NCBI GenBank assembly: GCA_020060235.1
Contig: JAGVAO010000067.1
Location: forward strand, 1,257 to 65,256
DNA: 64,000 nucleotides
Reading direction: 5' to 3'
Source: Anaerolineales bacterium
Lineage (GTDB): Bacteria; Chloroflexota; Anaerolineae; Anaerolineales; Villigracilaceae
The notes under the pieces were generated by a model. That model searched no databases. It saw nothing but the letters and a program-made list of their open reading frames with translations, and was not told the origin of the DNA. The position numbers and the translations under genes are program-made. Each line of letters starts with the position of its first letter. Within the stretch, counting starts at the first letter, position 1. Below are positions 6,197 through 63,250 of this stretch, piece after piece.

Positions 6197-6825
6197 ATCC
6201 TTCTACCAACATTTACCATTATCCAAACCAAATGGCGCGTATCCTGCTCTTGTCCGGCGACGAGATTTTGGGGCAGGCTGGCATGTCGGCAGTGTTGAAC
6301 GCGATTCCTGGCGGGTCTCGTTTTGTTGAAAATTATCCCCCTGCAAATACTAATCTGGAATTTCCCTTTGAACTTGTCGCCGGTTTGCAAGCCTCGCTCG
6401 AGTTGATTTATGGCCCTCACGGCGGGCGGGGGTTATCCATGCGCATGGGGCGCACATCTTTCCAGCATGGGCTATCTGAGTTCGGCCCGCTCTTTGGCCT
6501 GACAGACCTGGCGTTTCGCCTGCTGCCCCTCAAGACCAAACTGAGGGTTGGCGCAAACGCCTTTGCCGAAATTTTCAACAAACATAGCGACCAGCGCGTC
6601 CGCATCGAAGACCGGGACACACAGTTATACTGGCACATTGAGCGTTGCCCGGTTTGTTGGGGACGCAAGACCGAAGCCCCGGCCTGCCACCTGGCGGTTG
6701 GCTTGTTGCAAGAGGCTTTATATTGGGTAAGCGGTGGTAAGATGTTTAATGTAGAAGAAACGCAATGTTGCGCCGTGGGCGATTCTCAATGCAGCATTTT
6801 GATTGATAAAACTCCACTGGGGTGA
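6193..6825 (+). CDS. V4R (4-vinyl reductase-like) small-molecule-binding domain protein
   Basis: C-terminal Cys pattern ERCPVCWGRKTEAPACHLAVGLLQEALYWVSGG...QCCAVGDSQCSILI, typical of V4R domains (BchJ, XylR/DmpR N-termini). The start overlaps the previous stop (ATGA). Confidence 0.7.
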   Translation: MNPSTNIYHYPNQMARILLLSGDEILGQAGMSAVLNAIPGGSRFVENYPPANTNLEFPFELVAGLQASLELIYGPHGGRGLSMRMGRTSFQHGLSEFGPLFGLTDLAFRLLPLKTKLRVGANAFAEIFNKHSDQRVRIEDRDTQLYWHIERCPVCWGRKTEAPACHLAVGLLQEALYWVSGGKMFNVEETQCCAVGDSQCSILIDKTPLG

Positions 6826-6829
6826 ACCC

Positions 6830-8101
6830 ATGCTAAAAATAATTTTACAGGCCAAAAGACCCATCCTCCCCTTCAATGAACCTGCCCGCGATTTGCGCAT
6901 CCAGAACCAGCCGCTCTGGTTGTTGCAGCGCAATGCCCTTGCGCCTTACGTCACCCGCGAGTTGGAAATCCCATCCAATGCGCGTTTGCCGCAAATTCAG
7001 GAACCGATGCTGGTTTACCGCGACAATTTGTTCTTTGACCGGCATTTTATCGATGAGTTTATCCGCCTGGCTGTGCAGAAGAACCGTCCCGTGCGGGCGG
7101 CTTTTTCGATAGACGACCCGGCTTTTCGTGAGCACGCGCTGCCCTTGTCGGTATCCTATACGCCTGCCGGTAATTTATACCTGGCCGACATGTGGTACTA
7201 CCCTCGCGGCCCGGTAGCCGATGTAGACCCGCTGGTGATAGACATGCAGTCGCGGGAAGTGGGTTATTATCATGTGCCGTCTTACATGGCCGGGGAACGC
7301 GGCGACCTTGTCTTCCAGGTTCCGTTGCGCGCCATGCTGGCAATTGATACCTGGGTACACATCTTCATCGCCGACGTGGTCTTTGGTTTGTTCAAGCGCG
7401 GCAATCGCTTTGAAATTCGCCTGAGCAACGACCTGGCTTACAAACTGAAAATCATCAGCACCGCGATTTACGAGGGCCGCCAGATTCTGGAGTGCTCTGA
7501 ACTGGTGCAAATTGGCAAGAATTGCGTCATCGACCCACACGCTGTTATTCACGGACCGACAACGATTGGCGATAATGTCACTGTCGGCGCGGGCGCAGTC
7601 ATCGAGAACTGCATTATTGGCAACAATGTCAACGTGTCGCAGGATTGCCAGTTGATGCTCTCCGTCGTTGGGGACGGCACCTTCCTGCCGTTCAAGGCCG
7701 CCCTGTTTATGACCACCATCATGGACAACTCGATGGTTGCCCAAAATACCTGCCTGCAAATGTGTGTGGTGGGCCGAAACACATTTATTGGCGCAGGCTC
7801 TACGTTTACAGACTACAATCTCATTCCATCCACCATTCGCGCGTTGGATGGAAACGACGAACTCAAGCCATCCAACCGCCCCGTGTTGGGAGGGGCGGTT
7901 GGACACAATTGCCGCATTGGCGCAGGGATGATAGTTTACCCGGCCCGCACCATTGAGTCGGATGTCGTTCTGGCGGCGTCAAAGGAACGTCGGGTAATCG
8001 ATAAAAATATCAGATTTGAGGATAGCGACCACCATAAAATGAAAAACGCCGGCCAGCATAAAGTGCTTTACCAAAAACAACAGGATTTAGAGTCGTGGTA
8101 A
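6830..8101 (+). CDS. left-handed beta-helix (hexapeptide-repeat) protein, acyl/nucleotidyl-transferase-like
   Basis: Hexapeptide repeats IGKNCVIDPHAVIHGPTTIGDNVTVGAGAVIENCIIGNNVNVSQDC... The ATG at 6830 lies 4 nt after the upstream stop. The ORF track begins at an upstream TTG (6803). Confidence 0.65.
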   Translation: MLKIILQAKRPILPFNEPARDLRIQNQPLWLLQRNALAPYVTRELEIPSNARLPQIQEPMLVYRDNLFFDRHFIDEFIRLAVQKNRPVRAAFSIDDPAFREHALPLSVSYTPAGNLYLADMWYYPRGPVADVDPLVIDMQSREVGYYHVPSYMAGERGDLVFQVPLRAMLAIDTWVHIFIADVVFGLFKRGNRFEIRLSNDLAYKLKIISTAIYEGRQILECSELVQIGKNCVIDPHAVIHGPTTIGDNVTVGAGAVIENCIIGNNVNVSQDCQLMLSVVGDGTFLPFKAALFMTTIMDNSMVAQNTCLQMCVVGRNTFIGAGSTFTDYNLIPSTIRALDGNDELKPSNRPVLGGAVGHNCRIGAGMIVYPARTIESDVVLAASKERRVIDKNIRFEDSDHHKMKNAGQHKVLYQKQQDLESW

Positions 8102-33760: not shown

Positions 33761-34630
33761 ATGAGTCTCTGGAAAGAATATCTTCACCCCAAAACCGTAC
33801 AAGAAGCCGTCGAGGCCCTGGCCTCCTCCCCCGCTCCCGCGATTCCCATCGCGGGCGGTACCGATTTAATGCTCGACCTGCAACAGGGCAACCATACCCC
33901 GGTGCATACGCTGGTCGACCTGACCGGCATCCTTGAACTGCACGCCCTCGAAATTCGCGGCGAGAAGCTGTTTATCGGGGCGGGCGTGCCGCACAACCGC
34001 ATTGTTGAATCAGCGCTGGTGCGCGAACATGCCACATCGCTGGTCGAATCGTGCGGGCTGATTGGCGGGCCGCAGGTGCGCAACTCTGCCACGCTGGGAG
34101 GAAATGTTGCCCACGCCCTGCCCGCTGCCGACGGGACGATTGGACTTTTGGCGCTGGACGCGGAAGCCGAAGTCGCTTCGCCCTCAAGCCGCCGCCTGCT
34201 CCCGTTACATGAACTTTTTGCCGGCCCTGGCAAATCGACCCTCGCGGCGGACGAAATCCTGGTCGGCTTTTACGTTCCGCTGCGCAAGCCGCGCCAGGCC
34301 TCGGCTTTTTGCCGCGTCATGCGCGCCCAGGGAATCGCCCTGCCGATTCTCAACCTGGCTGCCTGGGTCGAGCGCGATGACGAGGTCATCCGCGCCACGC
34401 GGATTGCTGTCGGCCCGGCTGGCCCAACCCCCTTCCGCGCCCTCGAAACCGGAAAATTCCTGACCGGAAAAGCCTTCAGCGAAGAAACCATCGCCGGGGC
34501 GCAGGAAGTTTTGCTCTCCGAGGCCAAATTTCGCACCAGCCCGGCCCGCGCCACTGCCGAATACCGCCGCGAGTTGGTGGTTGTCCTGTTGAAAAATGCC
34601 TTCTCCGCCGCCTGGGAAAGGGCGAAATAG
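33761..34630 (+). CDS. xanthine dehydrogenase / CO dehydrogenase family, FAD-binding (medium) subunit
   Basis: MSLWKEYLHPKTVQEAVEAL...PIAGGTDLMLDL is typical of CoxM/XdhB-type subunits. The ATG at 33761 has AAGGAG 9 nt upstream. The track ORF starts earlier, at a TTG (33641). Confidence 0.8.
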   Translation: MSLWKEYLHPKTVQEAVEALASSPAPAIPIAGGTDLMLDLQQGNHTPVHTLVDLTGILELHALEIRGEKLFIGAGVPHNRIVESALVREHATSLVESCGLIGGPQVRNSATLGGNVAHALPAADGTIGLLALDAEAEVASPSSRRLLPLHELFAGPGKSTLAADEILVGFYVPLRKPRQASAFCRVMRAQGIALPILNLAAWVERDDEVIRATRIAVGPAGPTPFRALETGKFLTGKAFSEETIAGAQEVLLSEAKFRTSPARATAEYRRELVVVLLKNAFSAAWERAK

Positions 34631-34633
34631 CCC

Positions 34634-34687
34634 GGAGTCCAGCGTCTCCTGACGTTGGATATCGAAAATCGGGAGATTTTCGACTCC
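34634..34687 (+). repeat. palindromic element, family B copy 1 (intergenic)
   Basis: Hairpin 'tcgaaaatc'-ggga-'gattttcga' (34662-34683), with outer arms 'ggagtc' (34634) and 'gactcc' (34682-34687). Confidence 0.7.
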
Positions 34688-34701
34688 AAAAGGATTATCT
34701 C

Positions 34702-37557
34702 ATGAAAAAAACACAACTTTCCTTAACCGTAAACGGCAACACCCACACCCTGGCCTCCATCCCCGGCGAAACGCTGGCGGATTTGTTGCGTAAACGCCTG
34801 CACCTGACCGGCACAAAAATCGGCTGCAACGAAGCCGAGTGCGGCGCGTGCACCGTCATCATGGACGGCGAACCGGTCTTGTCCTGCTCCACCCCGGCGG
34901 AACGCGCCGACGGCAAGACAATTTTGACGATTGAGGGGCTGGCAAAGACCCCCCTCGCCCCTGCGGGGCACTCCCCCCATTTTCAAGGAAAATGGGAGGA
35001 GACGGAGGGGGGCCTGCATCCTCTGCAGGAAGCCTTCGTCTCCCACGGCGCAGTCCAGTGCGGGTTCTGCATCCCCGGCCAGATTATGACATCGTATGCC
35101 CTGCTCGAAAAGAACCCCAACCCGACCTCCGACGACATCCGCCACGCGCTCAAGGATACCATCTGCCGCTGTGCTGGATACCCGACGATTGAGAACGCGA
35201 TTTTAGCCGCCGCCGAATCGCTCCGCACTGGGCAGCCGGTTGAAGGGCCGGACATCCCGGATTCTGCGCTGGAGGGACAAACCGTCGGCAAGTTGAAAGT
35301 CCGCCCGGACGGGGTCGAGAAAGTCACCGGCCACGCGATTTACACCGATGACCTGATTTTCGATAACATGCTCTTCGCGGCGGTCAAGCGCGCGGGCGTG
35401 CCTCACGCTTTTGTCCGCAAAATTGACGTGGAAAAAGCCCGCAGCGCCCCCGGCGTCGTCTCCGTGCTGACCGCCGAAGATGTCCCCGGCGAAAACATTC
35501 ACGGACTGGTGACGCTCGACTGGCCGGTCATGGTCGGTATCGACGAACGCGTCCGCTATGTCGGTGACGCGATAGCGATTGTAGCCGCCGAAAGCCAGGA
35601 AGCGGCTAAAGCGGCGGTTGAACTTATCGAAGTTGAATTCGACCTCCAGCCGGTTGTTGGCAACGCAGTCCAGGCGCGGGAGGAGGGCCAGCCGCAAATC
35701 CACGAAAAGGGCAACCTGCTCAAGCACATCAAAGTCCGCAAGGGCGACCCGGAAATCGGGTTTGCCGAAGCAGACATCGTGCTGGAACACACCTTCCACA
35801 CCCCGGCCCATGACCACCTGTTCATCGAACCGGAATGTAGCATCGCCGTTCCCGAGGGCGAACGCATGTTAATTTACGTCGGCTCGCAAATTCCGTACCA
35901 GGATAGAACGCAAGTCGCCCGCGCCCTGGGCTGGGACGAGGGCCGGGTGCGTATCCTCGGCCAGTTGATGGGCGGCGGCTTCGGCGGCAAGGAAGACATC
36001 GCCGGGCAAATACACGCCGCGCTGCTGGCAAATGCCACCGGGCGGCCCGTCAAATTGCTCTTTGACCGCCACGAGAGCCTGCTGGTGCATCCCAAGCGCC
36101 ACGCTACCCAAATCAAGGTCAAGATTGGCGCGAAGAAGGACGGTACCCTGGTCGCTGCCAAAACCGAACTATACGGCGACACCGGCGCGTATGCCTCGCT
36201 GGGCGAGAAAGTGCTGACCCGCGCCACGACCCACTCGGCTGGCCCGTACATCATCCCGCACGTCCACGCCGACTGCTACGCCATGTACACCAACAATCCC
36301 CCGGCGGGCGCGTTTCGTGGGTTTGGCGTGCTGCAATCGGCCTTTGCGATTGAAACCGTGCTGGACATGTTGGCCGAAAAACTCGGCCTCGACCGCATCG
36401 AACTGCGCCGCAAGAACGCTCTGCGCGTCGGCACCGAAACCAGCACCGGGCAGGTGATGCGCGAGAGCGTCGGGCTGGTGGAGTGTATTGACAAGGTGTC
36501 AGGTACCATGTGTCAGGTGTCAGGTTTGTCGAGAGACGAATTGTTCCAGGCACGGCGGGTTCCCGACGCTGAACACCTCGTCCGCGCCTGGGGTTTTGCT
36601 TCCGGCTTCAAGAACACTGGTCTGGGCGGCGGCGCGGACGATTGCGCCGGGGCCGAAGTCGAACTCTATGAGGATGGCCTGTTCGAGGTGCGCTCCTCCT
36701 CCGCTGAACTCGGCCAGGGTCTCGTCACCGTCATGCGCATGATTGTGGCCGAGGAACTGTCCGTCCCGGCGGAGCAGGTCAAAGTCCTGGTGATGGACAC
36801 CGACCTGACCCCCAACGGCGGCCCGACCACCGCCTCGCGCCAGACCTACGTTACCGGCAATGCTTCAAGATTGGCGGCCAAGACCCTGCGCGAAGCCATC
36901 ACAGCGACCCTGGCCGAAAAATACGACCAGGCTCCCGATAAAATCCGCTTCGAGGACGGCAACGTGCGCGTCAATGGGCATAGCCTGACCATGCAGGAAG
37001 TCTACAGCGAGATGAAAGCCGCCGGGAAAGACCCGCGCGTCTTGTACGATTACCACGCCCCGGCCACGACCCCGCTCGGCACGCCCGGGGATATGCACGT
37101 CGCTTTCTCGTTCGCCTCGCAGGCCGCCGAGGTGGAAGTCAACACCCTGACCGGCGAAGTAAAAGTCCTGCGCGTCATCGCTGCCAATGATGTTGGCCAC
37201 GCCATCAACCCGCTCGGCTTGCGCGGACAAATCGAAGGCGGCGTCGTCATGGGCGTCGGCCATGCCCTGCTCGAAAACTTCATCACCAAAGACGGCATGG
37301 TCGTCACCGACCGCATGTCGCGCTACCGCGTCCCGTCCATCGTCCACACGCCCGAAATCATCCCGATTGTGGTCGAAGACCCGGCGTCAGACGGACCTTA
37401 CGGCGCGAAGGGCGTCGGCGAAATCGTCCTGATTCCGACCCCGCCCGCCATCACCAACGCCATCTACAATGCGGTCGGCGTACGATTCGACACCCTGCCG
37501 GTCGACCAGGAGAAATTGCTCTGGGCGATGCGGAATTCATCAGGCAGCGCAGGATAA
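34702..37557 (+). CDS. xanthine dehydrogenase / aldehyde oxidase family protein: [2Fe-2S] small subunit fused to the molybdopterin-binding large subunit
   Basis: N-terminal ferredoxin motifs GCNEAECGACTV and QCGFCIPG...CRCAGY, followed by an approximately 780-aa MoCo domain (GGGFGGKE, ...GPYGAKGVGE). Confidence 0.85.
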   Translation: MKKTQLSLTVNGNTHTLASIPGETLADLLRKRLHLTGTKIGCNEAECGACTVIMDGEPVLSCSTPAERADGKTILTIEGLAKTPLAPAGHSPHFQGKWEETEGGLHPLQEAFVSHGAVQCGFCIPGQIMTSYALLEKNPNPTSDDIRHALKDTICRCAGYPTIENAILAAAESLRTGQPVEGPDIPDSALEGQTVGKLKVRPDGVEKVTGHAIYTDDLIFDNMLFAAVKRAGVPHAFVRKIDVEKARSAPGVVSVLTAEDVPGENIHGLVTLDWPVMVGIDERVRYVGDAIAIVAAESQEAAKAAVELIEVEFDLQPVVGNAVQAREEGQPQIHEKGNLLKHIKVRKGDPEIGFAEADIVLEHTFHTPAHDHLFIEPECSIAVPEGERMLIYVGSQIPYQDRTQVARALGWDEGRVRILGQLMGGGFGGKEDIAGQIHAALLANATGRPVKLLFDRHESLLVHPKRHATQIKVKIGAKKDGTLVAAKTELYGDTGAYASLGEKVLTRATTHSAGPYIIPHVHADCYAMYTNNPPAGAFRGFGVLQSAFAIETVLDMLAEKLGLDRIELRRKNALRVGTETSTGQVMRESVGLVECIDKVSGTMCQVSGLSRDELFQARRVPDAEHLVRAWGFASGFKNTGLGGGADDCAGAEVELYEDGLFEVRSSSAELGQGLVTVMRMIVAEELSVPAEQVKVLVMDTDLTPNGGPTTASRQTYVTGNASRLAAKTLREAITATLAEKYDQAPDKIRFEDGNVRVNGHSLTMQEVYSEMKAAGKDPRVLYDYHAPATTPLGTPGDMHVAFSFASQAAEVEVNTLTGEVKVLRVIAANDVGHAINPLGLRGQIEGGVVMGVGHALLENFITKDGMVVTDRMSRYRVPSIVHTPEIIPIVVEDPASDGPYGAKGVGEIVLIPTPPAITNAIYNAVGVRFDTLPVDQEKLLWAMRNSSGSAG
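34949..35012 (+). repeat. nested-palindrome segment inside the 2Fe-2S domain coding sequence
   Basis: Outer arms 'cccccctc'/'gagggggg' enclose two inner hairpins, 'gcccc-tgc-ggggc' and 'cccattttc-aag-gaaaatggg'. The segment encodes an extra TPLAPAGHSPHFQGKWEETEGG between IEGL and LHPLQ. Confidence 0.55.
36496..36524 (+). repeat. TGTCAGG-repeat element, family A copy 1 (in-frame in the MoCo subunit)
   Basis: 'gtgtcaggtaccatgtgtcaggtgtcagg' is 27/29 identical to 45731-45759. It encodes VSGTMCQVSG. Confidence 0.8.
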
Positions 37558-45744: not shown

Positions 45745-45759
45745 GTGTCAGGTGTCAGG
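45731..45759 (+). repeat. TGTCAGG-repeat element, family A copy 2 (spans the GNAT stop and the P450 start)
   Basis: 'gtgtcaggtttcatgtgtcaggtgtcagg'. On the minus strand it supplies the TGA of the GNAT gene, the 10-nt spacer, and ATG AAA CCT GAC AC of the P450. Confidence 0.8.
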
Positions 45760-46276
45760 CGAGGGTTTTGGTCAGGTAAAGCACCAGGTCGTCATCGACG
45801 GGGATGGATTGGCCGTACTGAACGGGCTGGCCGCGCGAGAACAGTCCGCGCCCGTCGGGGATGTAACCGCGTTTGGCGTACATGCGCTGGGCCGAGCCGT
45901 AGTCGGCGGTCATGCCGACGCCCAGGCCAACCACTGCGCTTCGGGCGGCAACCCGTTTTTCGGCTTCGTCCATCAGGGACTCGCCGATGCCCTGGCGGCG
46001 GAATTTGGGCAGGACGTTGAAATCGACAATTTCAGGGATGTTTTGCTCGCGGAAAGGCGGGTAGTGCGACTGCCAGCAGATGGTGACGTAACCAGCGAAG
46101 TCCAAAATCGGGAGATTTTGGACTCCAGAATGAGCGACCAGGACGACCCGCTGGCCTGCTTCCTGCTCCGCGAGATATTTCTCATACTGCGAGGCGGGTT
46201 TATCCCAGCCCAGTTCAGAAAAAGCAGCAGCGATGGAGTTAATGTCGGTGGGTTCGATGAGGCGAATGGTAGGCAT
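45755..46276 (-). CDS. GNAT-family N-acetyltransferase
   Basis: 173 aa with the acetyl-CoA motif FRRQGIGESLMDEAEKRV. Confidence 0.8.
   Translation of the reverse strand: MPTIRLIEPTDINSIAAAFSELGWDKPASQYEKYLAEQEAGQRVVLVAHSGVQNLPILDFAGYVTICWQSHYPPFREQNIPEIVDFNVLPKFRRQGIGESLMDEAEKRVAARSAVVGLGVGMTADYGSAQRMYAKRGYIPDGRGLFSRGQPVQYGQSIPVDDDLVLYLTKTLA
46097..46126 (+). repeat. palindromic element, family B copy 2 (in-frame inside the GNAT gene)
   Basis: 'gaagtccaaaatc'-ggga-'gattttggactcc' pairs at 12 of 13 positions. It encodes GVQNLPILDF. Confidence 0.75.
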
Positions 46277-46295: not shown

Positions 46296-47747
46296 TCATT
46301 CGGGTTTTTGGCTTGTGGCTTTTGATGAATTGTAGGCTTTCAGCGTTCGTTCCCGCGCCTCGGCGCGGTCAACGATGGGTTGGGCCGGGTAGCCAGGGAC
46401 GCGGATGCCCTTTTCCCAGCAGGGGGCGTGGATTTCGGGGGTGGAGAGATGGGCGAGTTCGGGAACCCATTTGCGGATGTAGGCGCCGTCCGGGTCGAAT
46501 TTGGCCGATTGCAGCACCGGGTTGAAGATACGGAAGTAGGGCGCGGCATCGGTTCCGGTTCCAGCTGTCCACTGCCAGCCGCCGTTGTTGGCGGCCGGGT
46601 CGCCGTCGAGCAGGTTGTCCATAAACCAACGTTCGCCCCATTGCCAGTTAATCAGCAAATCCTTGACGAGAAAGGAGGCGACAATCATGCGCGCCCGGTT
46701 GTGCATCCAGCCGGTTTCGCGCAGTTGGCGCATGGCTGCGTCCACGACCGGGACGCCGGTGCGGCCTTCCTTCCAGGCGGCAAAATCGGCTTCATCGTCC
46801 CGCCAGGGGATGTTTTGCAGGGCCGGGTTGAATGCGCGCCTGGCAACGTGCGGGAAGTGGTAGAGGATAGATATGTAGAATTCGCGCCAGATGAGTTCGT
46901 TCAACCATCTTTGCGAGCCTTTTTCGTTGAACGTGTTCAACGCGGTTTCAGCCGCCTGGCGCATGGAAACCATGCCGAAGCGGATATAGGGCGAGAGGGC
47001 GGAAGTGCCGTCGAGGTCGAGGCGGTTGCGGGTTTCGTGGTAACTGGTAATTGGTGATTGAGCAAATTGAGCTAGGCGGCGTTGGGCTTCGGCTTCACCG
47101 GGAGGAAAATGGTCAACGGATGACAGCGGATGCGCGGAGTTGTCAACGGATAGGAACGGATGCACGGATTTTGCCAGCGGATGAAGGGGCGGATACTTCG
47201 GCAGGCTCGGTGCAAGTTGCGCGGATATCTCAACGGATGGGGGCAGGTTGATGGGGGGGAAATGTTCCGGAGCTGGGAGCGGGTTTAGGCTCGATGGGAG
47301 CAGGGATTTCCAGGTTTTCGCAAAAGGCGTGAAAACGGTGTACGGCTTGCCGTCTGGTTTGCGAACGGCTTCCGGGTGATGAACGGTCTGCCCGTGGACA
47401 AGGGTCAGCGGTAGGGATTGAATCAGTTGTTCGTCGCGGGCGCGGGCGTAGGGGGTGTAATCTTGCTCGGCAAAAATGGCCTGCGCGCCAGTTTCGATGA
47501 GCAGGTTGAGCAATTCAATCTCCGGTTTGCCGCGTCGAATGACCAGAGAAGAGCCGCGTTTTTGCAATTCCTGGTCGAGTTCGTCCAGGCCGCCAAAGAG
47601 GAAGGCTTGCCGCCGGGCGGGAGTGCGTTCGAGCAGGTGCGGGTCGAGGATAAAGACGGGGACCACCGCTCCCTGCTTGAGAGCGGCGCGCAAGGCCGGG
47701 TTATCCGAAAGGCGAAGGTCGCGGCGAATCCACCACAGGGAGGTCAT
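46296..47747 (-). CDS. phr: deoxyribodipyrimidine photolyase (cryptochrome/photolyase family)
   Basis: LWWIRRDLRLSDNPAL, WREFY, GWMHNRARMIVASFL, and W..G..D-type FAD-domain motifs. Confidence 0.9.
   Translation of the reverse strand: MTSLWWIRRDLRLSDNPALRAALKQGAVVPVFILDPHLLERTPARRQAFLFGGLDELDQELQKRGSSLVIRRGKPEIELLNLLIETGAQAIFAEQDYTPYARARDEQLIQSLPLTLVHGQTVHHPEAVRKPDGKPYTVFTPFAKTWKSLLPSSLNPLPAPEHFPPINLPPSVEISAQLAPSLPKYPPLHPLAKSVHPFLSVDNSAHPLSSVDHFPPGEAEAQRRLAQFAQSPITSYHETRNRLDLDGTSALSPYIRFGMVSMRQAAETALNTFNEKGSQRWLNELIWREFYISILYHFPHVARRAFNPALQNIPWRDDEADFAAWKEGRTGVPVVDAAMRQLRETGWMHNRARMIVASFLVKDLLINWQWGERWFMDNLLDGDPAANNGGWQWTAGTGTDAAPYFRIFNPVLQSAKFDPDGAYIRKWVPELAHLSTPEIHAPCWEKGIRVPGYPAQPIVDRAEARERTLKAYNSSKATSQKPE
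47112..47243 (+). repeat. 'caacggatg / gcggatgcgcgga' repeat block, family C copy 1 (in-frame in the photolyase inter-domain linker)
   Basis: 'gtcaacggatgacagcggatgcgcggagttgtcaacggataggaacggatgcacgg...' encodes ...HPLAKSVHPFLSVDNSAHPLSSVDH. Confidence 0.8.
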
Positions 47748-61198: not shown

Positions 61199-63250
61199 TT
61201 AACCCGGGTTGCAGCCCAACTCCTCCAGCCATTCGGCGGGCAGGGGTTGCCGCTGGCTGGCGCGCTCCCAGGCGGCGCAAAACGTTTTTCGCAGGAAGGG
61301 ACGTTCAGAGACGGCCTGCTTCGTGCGCATAGCCGCTTTTTGTGTGTCGCCGTTTGTTGCGCCCGCTTCAACGAAGGGCAGCCATTCGAGCGGGTCGGAT
61401 GGAGAATAGCCGAATGCGGCAGCCTCGGTATCGAGACGGGCGATTTCGTCCCATTGTTGGAATTGGCGGGCCAGCTCGGCGCGAGCATAGTAGTAGCACC
61501 ATCCGCGCGAGGGTTCGGGGCCGAAAACGGACTCGGCAACGGACTCTGTCACGGAATCACGGATGGAAGCAGACTTGGTAATTAAATCCAGGCTTGAGAG
61601 GGCAATGGCCTGACGCATGCGCTCGGACAGGTTGGGGTAGGCGTCTTCGTCGCCGGGGGAGAGGATGCGCACGCAGCCACGCAGGGGGGCCAGGAAGGCG
61701 ATGGATTGGGATGTGTTGCCGCTGAAATGGGCCGGGCGGTAGGGAAATTCGATGGGGGTATCCGGGTCGAGGGCCAGGCGGCGGGGGCGCATGTCGACGC
61801 CGAAGACGAGGTAGGGAATTTGATGCGAATCCAGGTCGGGGGCATACATCCAGTTCAGCGGGGCGGTCAGGATGTAGTCGGTTTCGTAGTCGATTTCGAC
61901 GGTGTCAGTAAACAGGACGGTCCCCGGTTGGATGGCGGGCATGCGCCAGGTGAATTGCCAGTAAATGTCGCGCTGGCGGTCCCAGTCGCGGCGAAAGATG
62001 TTGGCGTTGTAGAACTGCTGTCCGACGCCGAGGGCGACGATGAGGCTGGCGAGTATCAACCGCCAGCGTCCGTTTCGGGCGACCAGTTCGATTATCCCAA
62101 CGGCGAACAGGCTGGCGGCCAGCATCAGCGAGACGTTGAATCGGTCGTTGCTGGATTGCAGGGTGAGCGGCAGGCCGGCGGCCCAGGAGGGGATGCGTCC
62201 GAGGATGATGCCGATGATGCCGATGAGGAGTAGGTCAACGGATGGGGGAGCGGATGCGCGGAGGTTATCAACGGATGGAATCGGATGCGCGGATGGGGGG
62301 GCGGACTCTGTAAAAGTTGGCAGGCGGCTGAGGTAGAAGGTCAGGGCGGCGAAGGTGACGGCGATGAGCGCGAGGGTGAGCAAGCCCGAGGGGGTGGGGA
62401 GGGCTTCGGTAACGAGAGACAGGATTTGGGCGTAGGCAACGAATCCCGCTTTGTAGACGGCTTCGGCGGCGGTGGCGAAAAAGCCATTTAAAAGGTTGGA
62501 GGCCGGGGCTTCGACATCCAGCGCAACGTCATAATTTGCGTACAGGCCGGAGCGGTAGTAGAAAAACAGCCAGGCGGCGTTGAGCGACCAGACCAGGATG
62601 TAAGGAATCCACAGTTTAAGGGCCTGCCATGCGCGGGGCAGGAGGGGCTGCGCGGCCAGCATGGAGAACAGAAATAGGAAGCGCAGGGGTTCGATGGTCA
62701 GGAAGTATTCGGTCGGGAAGACACCCAGAACGAGAAGCAGCAGCGCAATGACGGTGCGCGGACGAAAACGGGCCGGGCTATGGAAGGCCCAGCCGGTTGC
62801 GCCAAAGGACAGGATGTAGAACAGCAGGGGAATGAGTTCCTGGTTGATGTGGGTGAAGGCGACCCAATGTTGCGAGTAGCCGGGATAGACCAGAAAGATG
62901 AGCGCGGCGGTCAGGGTCTGGCGCGGGCGGTCAGGCCAAATGCTGCGCAAGGCCCACCAGACCGAAAGGGTGAGCGCGAAGCGGATGAAAAGGGCGAAGG
63001 TTTGCCAGGCGAGCGGGGTTTCGGGCAGCAGGCTGGTGGTGAATTGGAAAATGGGGCCAAGGAAGGGACGCACGCGCAGGAAGGAACGCAGGAAACTCTC
63101 AGGGCCGAAAAAGTGCGCGCCCCAGGCGAAGGGCCAGTCGTCCCAGTAGAAGCCGGTACGGGTGAGTAGCAGTCCGTAGCCGAGAACGACCAGGACGGCA
63201 AAGGCAAGCGGAATTGTTTTGGGCGAGAATTGGAATCGGTTTTGCGGCAT
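61199..63250 (-). CDS. large polytopic membrane protein, possible GT-C-fold glycosyltransferase
   Basis: 683 aa with about 12 TM helices, an acidic first-loop motif (FYWDDWPFAW), and a soluble C-terminal domain. The family assignment is tentative. Confidence 0.4.
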   Translation of the reverse strand: MPQNRFQFSPKTIPLAFAVLVVLGYGLLLTRTGFYWDDWPFAWGAHFFGPESFLRSFLRVRPFLGPIFQFTTSLLPETPLAWQTFALFIRFALTLSVWWALRSIWPDRPRQTLTAALIFLVYPGYSQHWVAFTHINQELIPLLFYILSFGATGWAFHSPARFRPRTVIALLLLVLGVFPTEYFLTIEPLRFLFLFSMLAAQPLLPRAWQALKLWIPYILVWSLNAAWLFFYYRSGLYANYDVALDVEAPASNLLNGFFATAAEAVYKAGFVAYAQILSLVTEALPTPSGLLTLALIAVTFAALTFYLSRLPTFTESAPPSAHPIPSVDNLRASAPPSVDLLLIGIIGIILGRIPSWAAGLPLTLQSSNDRFNVSLMLAASLFAVGIIELVARNGRWRLILASLIVALGVGQQFYNANIFRRDWDRQRDIYWQFTWRMPAIQPGTVLFTDTVEIDYETDYILTAPLNWMYAPDLDSHQIPYLVFGVDMRPRRLALDPDTPIEFPYRPAHFSGNTSQSIAFLAPLRGCVRILSPGDEDAYPNLSERMRQAIALSSLDLITKSASIRDSVTESVAESVFGPEPSRGWCYYYARAELARQFQQWDEIARLDTEAAAFGYSPSDPLEWLPFVEAGATNGDTQKAAMRTKQAVSERPFLRKTFCAAWERASQRQPLPAEWLEELGCNPG
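62234..62308 (+). repeat. 'caacggatg / gcggatgcgcgga' repeat block, family C copy 2 (in-frame in the membrane protein)
   Basis: 'gtcaacggatgggggagcggatgcgcggaggttatcaacggatggaatcggatgcgcggatggggg' encodes PPSAHPIPSVDNLRASAPPSVD. Confidence 0.8.

Follow-up and report, generated by a model that had tools for sequence, protein, structure and literature searches.

A dispersed family of short, tagged hairpin repeats in Anaerolineales, with units in a dehydrogenase operon spacer and in an acetyltransferase gene

A 64,000-nt stretch of Anaerolineales DNA (contig JAGVAO010000067.1; the window, hereafter, is this whole stretch) carries the same small palindrome at two unrelated places, once between two subunit genes of a dehydrogenase operon and once inside the reading frame of a GNAT acetyltransferase gene, which raises the question of whether the hairpin serves these two loci or has come to them as a copy of something more widespread. 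The 16-mer AAAATCGGGAGATTTT matches the + strand at 34665-34680 and 46104-46119 and nowhere else in the window at up to 2 mismatches, which makes two exact matches where shuffled sequence gives 0.07 (0 of 100 shuffles reach 2), and the likeness of the two copies spans 33 nt at 88% (repeat family D19). The original prediction had reported these two copies and a stem difference between them, and the difference is indeed complementary (G34664/C34681 versus C46103/G46120); likewise, the first copy does lie in the 71-nt spacer between the FAD and Fe-S/MoCo subunit genes. The GGAGTC at 34634-34639, by contrast, had been misread as a left outer arm standing ~22 nt from the core. These letters are instead the 5' tag of another complete unit, which lies on the + strand and has the loop TCCT, so the spacer element consists of two hairpins in opposite orientation. 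The features concerned are these:

33761-34630, + strand: gene for a xanthine-dehydrogenase-family FAD-binding subunit (Pfam FAD_binding_5 and CO_deh_flav_C; ATG at 33761), upstream of the doublet
34633-34659, + strand: unit H1, CGGAG-TCCAGCGTC-TCCT-GACGTTGGA (covariance model 42.5 bits, E 5e-10)
34662-34688, - strand: unit H2, copy 1 of the original prediction, TGGAG-TCGAAAATC-TCCC-GATTTTCGA (covariance model 44.3 bits, E 1.5e-10)
34633-34688, both strands: convergent doublet H1 + H2, with tags facing outward, 2 nt between the units and GATATC at the centre
34702-37557, + strand: gene for a fused 2Fe-2S/molybdopterin-binding subunit (Pfam Fer2, Fer2_2, Ald_Xan_dh_C, MoCoBD_1 and MoCoBD_2), downstream of the doublet
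45755-46276, - strand: GNAT acetyltransferase gene of 173 aa (Pfam Acetyltransf_1/7/10), which carries C2
46101-46127, - strand: unit C2, copy 2 of the original prediction, TGGAG-TCCAAAATC-TCCC-GATTTTGGA (covariance model 46.8 bits, E 3e-11)

H1 carries the Y-GGAG tag and a TCCT loop on a 9-bp stem that includes one G.T pair, and it folds as a hairpin of its own; the RNA fold of the doublet (-28.7 kcal/mol, z -3.4) consists of two separate hairpins, and the GGAGTC and GACTCC ends can close a Y-shaped fold. C2 reads GVQNLPILD in frame, and its perfect stem extends to 11 bp (46099-46124). Both window regions fold better than shuffles (z -2.3 to -4.0). A covariance model built from the units of other genomes only recovers exactly three units in the window, at 42.5-46.8 bits and E ~1e-10, the next match in the window scoring below 8 bits, and a search of Rfam over 34400-34900 matched no family (best 10-13 bits, E above 4, far under the gathering scores). 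The FAD subunit has orthologues of 289 aa. Two readings of the hairpins as expression signals were rejected: an intrinsic terminator, because the stems are A/T-rich and no T run comes after them, the sequence that follows being CTCCAAAAGG in the spacer and coding sequence in the GNAT gene; and sequestration of the Shine-Dalgarno sequence by the doublet, because in the centroid fold the AAGGA that precedes the ATG remains free.

The wider search that had been suggested together with the original prediction turned up many other copies. A scan of 185,579 species-representative genomes with GGAGTCNANNNTCTCCNGANNNTNGA, in which 17 bases are fixed and four stem pairs are free, gave at least 119 stretches; among the matches listed (at least 121), 96 are from Chloroflexota (records whose titles name Anaerolineales, Anaerolineae, Chloroflexi or Chloroflexota, together with two MAGs that are probably mis-binned or unnamed), and 25 are from other taxa, mostly from one conserved actinobacterial gene. 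All four free stem pairs are complementary in 80 of these 96 Chloroflexota matches and in 0 of the 25 others, against a chance of 1/256 per match, and again among the matches listed the repeat occurs several times per genome, in unrelated contexts, in dozens of MAGs. Viral contigs yielded two matches with poorly pairing stems, which we take as chance or decayed copies. The three window hairpins belong to a family of short repeats, tagged and self-complementary, that is dispersed in Anaerolineales and related Chloroflexota. A full-text literature search with 13-mers of the repeat and for palindromic repeats in Anaerolineae returned no description of the family, which is apparently undescribed.

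The family unit is 27 nt long, 5'-Y-GGAG-TC-VAAMR-TC-(TCCH loop)-GA-YKTTB-GA, and comprises a single-ended 5' tag (Y-GGA-G/C), a 9-bp stem (TC-VAAMR-TC with GA-YKTTB-GA) and a 4-nt loop (TCCH); it can be searched for with covariance model R1 or, alternatively, with the pattern YGGASTCVAAMRTCTCCHGA. Across 137 units from a loop-anchored search, mostly from tag-constrained pattern matches, position -5 is a pyrimidine in 117, and the following positions are G (133/137), G (134/137), A (135/137) and then G (109/137) or C (22/137). These 137 units share a sharp left boundary, and base composition is random ahead of Y-GGAG and beyond the right arm. At the fourth loop position T, C and A occur, with G in just 3 of 146 units, and when 9-bp hairpins with 4-nt loops are counted in the fetched loci, TCCN/NGGA loops number 148 and every other loop 5 or fewer. 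Readings of the unit as a restriction or methylation site (GANTC, GTCTC) were also considered; such sites occur in some alleles but not in all.

Covariation analysis of 87 distinct units showed that stem variation is compensatory and not random: the named structure pairs 98.1% of cells as opposed to 87.5% in shuffles, none of 500 shuffles reaches the observed value, and sliding the partner by one column lowers pairing to 41-53%. Three stem pairs show two to three Watson-Crick types each, namely pair 7-24 (CG 52, AU 18, GC 13), pair 10-21 (AU 61, CG 21) and pair 11-20 (GC 69, AU 10), while the left arm is A-rich and the right arm T-rich throughout. Units occur singly or as convergent doublets with tags outward, neighbouring units being convergent in 30 of 34 close pairs and divergent in none, and the two partners never carry the same stem (0 of 29 convergent doublets, 14.8% expected, P about 0.01).

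Larger arrangements of the doublet were also seen. A composite of ~115 nt, in which arms resembling terminal inverted repeats (GTGTGCAGGCAAAACATGTCAGG ... CTGACAACCTTTGCTTGCAC) surround a fixed family doublet, occurs in several genomes with unrelated flanks (loci L053, L054, L084, L105, L130 and L131; e.g., around L054:2560-2700), one copy having a compensated G..C to A..T change and another a mismatch intermediate. The junction of CATGTCAGGCAC with GGAGTC, considered as an orthologous site, belongs instead to such a larger composite repeat with unrelated flanks. At L126:1190-1320, a ~91-nt unit consisting of a hairpin doublet and spacer is tandemly duplicated, with two identical GGAGTCCAACGTCTCCTGACGTTGGAAATGGCTTGCAAGC stretches.

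REP elements and their doublets (REPINs/BIMEs), which are mobilised by RAYT Y1 transposases (PMC3733652, PMC3116915, PMC2817692), offer the first comparison. REPs are 20-40-bp palindromes tagged GTAG or CGTC that form inverted dimers and have occasional in-gene copies, and GTAG repeats occur in Chloroflexi (PMC3733652); in REPINs, two inverted REPs pair to form a single long hairpin, with compensatory changes (PMC3116915). Like REPs, the units described here are short palindromes tagged at a single end, dispersed and apparently mostly extragenic, with inverted doublets, compensatory changes and occasional in-frame copies (PMC3733652, PMC3116915), and the 27-nt unit with its 9-bp stem and 4-nt loop falls within the size and stem-loop range of REPs. 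Unlike REPs, they are tagged Y-GGAG rather than GTAG or CGTC, every unit forms a full, perfect hairpin by itself, and a genic fraction of ~10% and combinatorial stem alleles are unusual; unlike REPINs, their doublet partners differ in stem (29/29), so no single long hairpin forms. The REP survey of PMC3733652 contains no GGAG-tagged family, and the term GGAG is absent from it.

Other small repeats share single traits with the family. Rickettsia palindromic elements (RPEs) stand in frame in genes that remain functional (background of PMC3733652). In this they resemble the present units as palindromic repeats in frame in working genes, but the units of this family are 27 nt long, belong to Chloroflexota and are unrelated in sequence. 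RPEs are ~100-150 nt long and are known only from Rickettsia. The cyanobacterial small dispersed repeats (SDRs; Elhai et al. 2008, cited in PMC3116915) are likewise very small (about 21-27 nt), palindromic and dispersed, but they belong to another phylum and have another sequence. Elhai et al. 2008 reportedly found them nested and inside genes as well. MITEs (Correia/NEMIS, RUP, ERIC, Nezha) are similarly non-autonomous and hairpin-forming and lie beside or inside genes, but they measure 70-300 bp against 27 nt here, where the unit has no terminal inverted repeats beyond its own stem, no target duplication was seen and the flanks are random; only the ~115-nt composite is MITE-like.

We consider it probable, at roughly 0.7, that the family is a REP-like, non-autonomous mobile hairpin repeat whose folded single strand and tag are recognised by an enzyme acting in trans, and that the window copies are landed insertions. 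The units are taken as mobile DNA because of their REP-type anatomy (tag, hairpin, inverted doublets), their dispersion, the filled and empty sites among relatives and the decay of old copies. Mobility would proceed through a single-strand hairpin intermediate, the trans-acting enzyme being of the HUH type or another, with near-neutral effects on the host. Such an enzyme would recognise the hairpin together with its 5' tag and copy only those units whose arms still pair; since pairing would be needed for copying, young copies would be perfectly complementary despite their varying stem letters, and old, site-bound copies would decay. In the window, one doublet would have landed in a hypervariable spacer of the dehydrogenase operon and one unit in the GNAT gene.

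Candidates for the enzyme were sought among all ORFs in the 1.46 Mb around units. Searches with phmmer, using E. coli RayT and the RAYT of locus L178 as queries, matched only L178/L179, and no Y1 or RAYT gene in this DNA adjoins or is flanked by GGAG-tagged units, in which respect the family may depart from REP/RAYT systems. ORFs bracketed by two units in the manner of a REPtron are ordinary genes only. A regular expression for HUH...Y..NP transposases found nothing, being a poor test that missed the real RAYT of L178 too. That locus (JAKLPV010000226.1, an Anaerolineae MAG that holds an orthologue of the window's dehydrogenase locus) contains a RAYT-like ORF of 164 aa at 6413-6907, with E 3e-6 to E. 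coli RayT and a Pfam Y1_Tnp score of 21.5 bits, just under the cut-off. Positions 5700-7000 of L178 form a classical REPtron, in which arrays of GTAG-tagged repeats (GTAGGGGCACGGCGG...CCGCCGTGCCCCTAC) lie on both sides of the ORF and one GTAG doublet stands in frame inside it (6597-6657); neither the window nor any other locus fetched has this GTAG repeat. Classical REPtrons thus exist in Anaerolineae, and it is GTAG repeats, not GGAG-tagged units, that flank the one seen.

Presence and absence of units at orthologous sites differ among relatives. Between the amino-oxidase and MerR genes, L170 and L174 have a doublet in decay, L173 has a single unit and L169 a rearranged remnant, while the spacer of L172 is empty; the C-terminal tail of a P450 carries a ~70-nt doublet in L175 only, among the relatives compared. 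Old copies at orthologous sites decay, as the GNAT and amino-oxidase/MerR comparisons show. No clean pair of filled and empty sites that would fix exact insertion boundaries or a target duplication was found, the L175/L171 P450 case being a replacement and not an addition.

At the GNAT site, alignment of orthologues with and without the insert identifies C2 as a 6-codon in-frame insertion. Orthologues of at least 77% identity have 12 residues there (e.g., HSGVQNLPILDF) and many more distant ones have six (FLNGEF, FLDGEF, LVDDVF), so that the peptide is not shared by the more distant orthologues (FLNGEF instead of xxGVQNLPILDF). The original prediction that C2 is translated from the minus strand as GVQNLPILDF at a short loop of the acetyltransferase agrees with the AlphaFold2 model (mean pLDDT 93.6), which places VQNLPI in loop 51-56 between strands 42-50 and 57-66. 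Judged by this model, C2 adds six residues to, and so lengthens, the tip of a beta-hairpin.

The DNA of eleven GNAT orthologues, for which the metagenome scan supplied only three close ones, was compared at this site. The allele CAAAATC/GATTTTG, encoding VQN..ILD, is found in the window, L174, L175 and L012, and the allele CAACGTC/GACGTTG, encoding LQR..TLE, in L168, L169, L170 and, with one mismatch, L002; arm-swapped or broken stems occur in L001 (CAAAATC/GACGCTG), L173 (CAACGTC/GATTTTG) and L171 (CAAAATC/GACTTGG), so that the hairpin is not intact in every orthologue. The window and its closest GNAT relative, L168 (0.112 divergence outside the hairpin), differ at 10 of 30 hairpin positions, and L001 and L170 (0.085 divergence) at 9 of 30, while L171, at 0.23 divergence, differs from the window at just 4. 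The site of L172 is empty (TTC TTA AAT GGC GAA TTT) although L172 is nested among filled relatives by distance over ~2.2 kb, and in a protein tree of low resolution the filled and empty states and both alleles are interleaved. Because alleles are independent of gene relatedness and L172 is empty, the site evidently turns over, through conversion, recombination or excision and re-insertion.

This turnover bears on a variant account, in which the family is kept up by a process that re-creates perfect hairpins and shuffles stem alleles rather than by ordinary master-copy transposition, or in which a mobilising enzyme other than a RAYT is at work. The variable stem pairs are in linkage equilibrium (chi-square 7.5, 14 df), doublets never bear the same stem twice, and GNAT alleles and arm-swapped chimeras appear regardless of relatedness, all of which fits such re-creation. 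Linkage equilibrium and allele switching at the GNAT site fit a simple master-copy transposon poorly and suggest that short-tract conversion or recurrent compensation operates too. The process may be very short-tract conversion between dispersed copies or fold-back re-templating of one arm from the other. We regard this account as rather unlikely to replace the REP-like mobile repeat as the explanation of the family; if true, re-creation of hairpins within genes would give them an inherent source of palindromic peptide variants (VQNLPILD versus LQRLQTLE), placed in protein loops.

A host-selected RNA element, which would lend stability to the mRNA upstream of it, adjust how the following cistron is translated or be bound by a regulator, e.g., of the CsrA type, is an account that the spacer doublet invites by its position (beginning 2 nt past the stop codon of the FAD subunit and ending 13 nt short of the ATG of the MoCo subunit) and its stable fold within an operon. 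In part of the literature, REP elements of other bacteria are reported as 3' mRNA elements. Every doublet transcript shows an NGGA loop, and GGA in a hairpin loop resembles CsrA sites; the GGA of the tag and that loop might both be recognised by a protein of the CsrA type. The orthologous FAD-MoCo spacers of L176, L178 and L180, however (FAD subunit 91, 83 and 80% identical), contain no unit, and at 89-112 nt, as opposed to 71 nt in the window, they are unrelated in sequence; the suggestion that the spacer copy acts in translational coupling or mRNA processing of the dehydrogenase operon accordingly finds no support. The spacer of the 91%-identical relative (L176:10873-10963) repeats a small tandem motif, ATCGAAYAT, and has no hairpin doublet; the FAD-MoCo spacer apparently collects short insertions of various kinds.

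Gene context across the family also speaks against an RNA element. It was judged by ORF proxies, which are crude: by these, 34 of 106 sites lie inside an ORF, most of them at ORF ends, and the 61 intergenic sites comprise 42 in tandem, 12 in divergent and 7 in convergent spacers, approximately the share of intergenic bases in each class, so that divergent spacers are not avoided. There is no clear strand bias relative to transcription in tandem contexts (tag strand the same in 11, opposite in 16), copies within genes use both orientations and all frames, and the mismatches of imperfect units show no G.T (G.U) enrichment on either strand. Together with the decay of copies at orthologous sites and the lack of an Rfam match, these observations make a host-selected RNA element quite unlikely. 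Because orthologous spacers are empty, strand bias is not clear, divergent spacers are not avoided and old copies decay, the pairing constraint looks like a property of the family and its propagation and not like a local host function. The selection on the hairpin that had been proposed from the first two copies is thus upheld family-wide, as compensatory stems, but not for this operon or this enzyme, and neither window copy needs a locus-specific function.

Units within genes appear instead to be tolerated insertions. Counting Pfam-supported cases only, ~10% of the ~106 sites are verified as in frame within real genes; calls of genic copies from stop-free stretches or greedy ORFs were rejected as overcalls, since the units are themselves stop-free and many such calls are N-terminal ORF extensions. 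Verified copies stand in QueA, where the domain match spans the insert, inside the domain in ADH_N, in the beta-propeller part of an S9 peptidase, between the two domains of CobB, as doublets in FemAB and before the C-terminal domain of ABC-F, in a DnaB intein and in a conserved membrane protein of two genomes; a GH4 hydrolase, a lysine aminomutase and an ABC ATPase carry further in-frame units in their C-terminal tails. Of 87 units, 42 (48%) are open in all six frames, compared with 6% of shuffles and 24% of random hairpins of equal arm composition. With no stop in any frame of the commonest alleles, in-frame insertions in tolerant loops, linkers and tails survive.

Two observations were made alongside. 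At L093:7945-7989, the reading frame of this DnaB helicase contains a doublet at the intein splicing domain or immediately beyond it (Pfam Intein_splicing at residues 399-490, doublet at 489-503), and the locus ends soon after. A second short repeat, GCATCCG-N4-8-ATCCGTTGA, occurs in the window at 47113-47163 and 62235-62288 (both - strand), with four exact matches where 0 are expected; two are in a photolyase gene, in the linker between two Pfam domains, and two in a 683-aa ORF (61199-63250), and the photolyase orthologues of L001 and L170 have it as well. This, too, appears to be a small repeat that is tolerated within coding sequence.

A host-selected DNA element would consist of hairpins or cruciforms bound or cleaved by a chromosomal protein (gyrase, a nucleoid protein, or a methylase or restriction partner), spread by recombination and kept for genome structure. 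The fixed polarity of the arms, A-rich on the left and T-rich on the right, and the two to three pair types per position indicate recognition that seems sequence-specific as well as structural; G is nearly barred from the fourth loop position, and E. coli REP/BIME elements are described, in part of the REP literature, as binding host proteins. Yet an operator bound as duplex would conserve letters, not complementarity, and a structural role for the genome is difficult to reconcile with sites that are not conserved between close relatives, with the ~10% of sites inside genes and with a low density, related DNA of ~280 kb holding ~10 sites (roughly one every 28 kb). We judge this account improbable.

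Coincidence, or an ancestral functional loop of the GNAT protein that the spacer merely resembles, has next to no probability: the window does hold just two matches to the 16-mer, but 0.07 are expected, about a hundred related copies exist in other Chloroflexota genomes among the matches listed, and the insert is missing from GNAT orthologues of 79% identity and below as well as from one close relative.

Most knowledge of small palindromic repeats (REP, REPIN, RPE, SDR) comes from Proteobacteria, Cyanobacteria and Rickettsia, and the present family adds a clean and easily modelled one in Anaerolineales, which are mostly uncultured and are abundant in sludge and groundwater. It stretches the REP picture by its other tag, its self-contained hairpins with combinatorial stems, its doublets that do not pair with each other and the notable proportion of its copies that are translated in real enzymes. 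For the annotation of Chloroflexota MAGs, the units will cause spurious "conserved peptides" and ORF extensions. They also provide a natural data set on how repeats keep their stems and on how proteins tolerate palindromic insertions of 6-20 residues.
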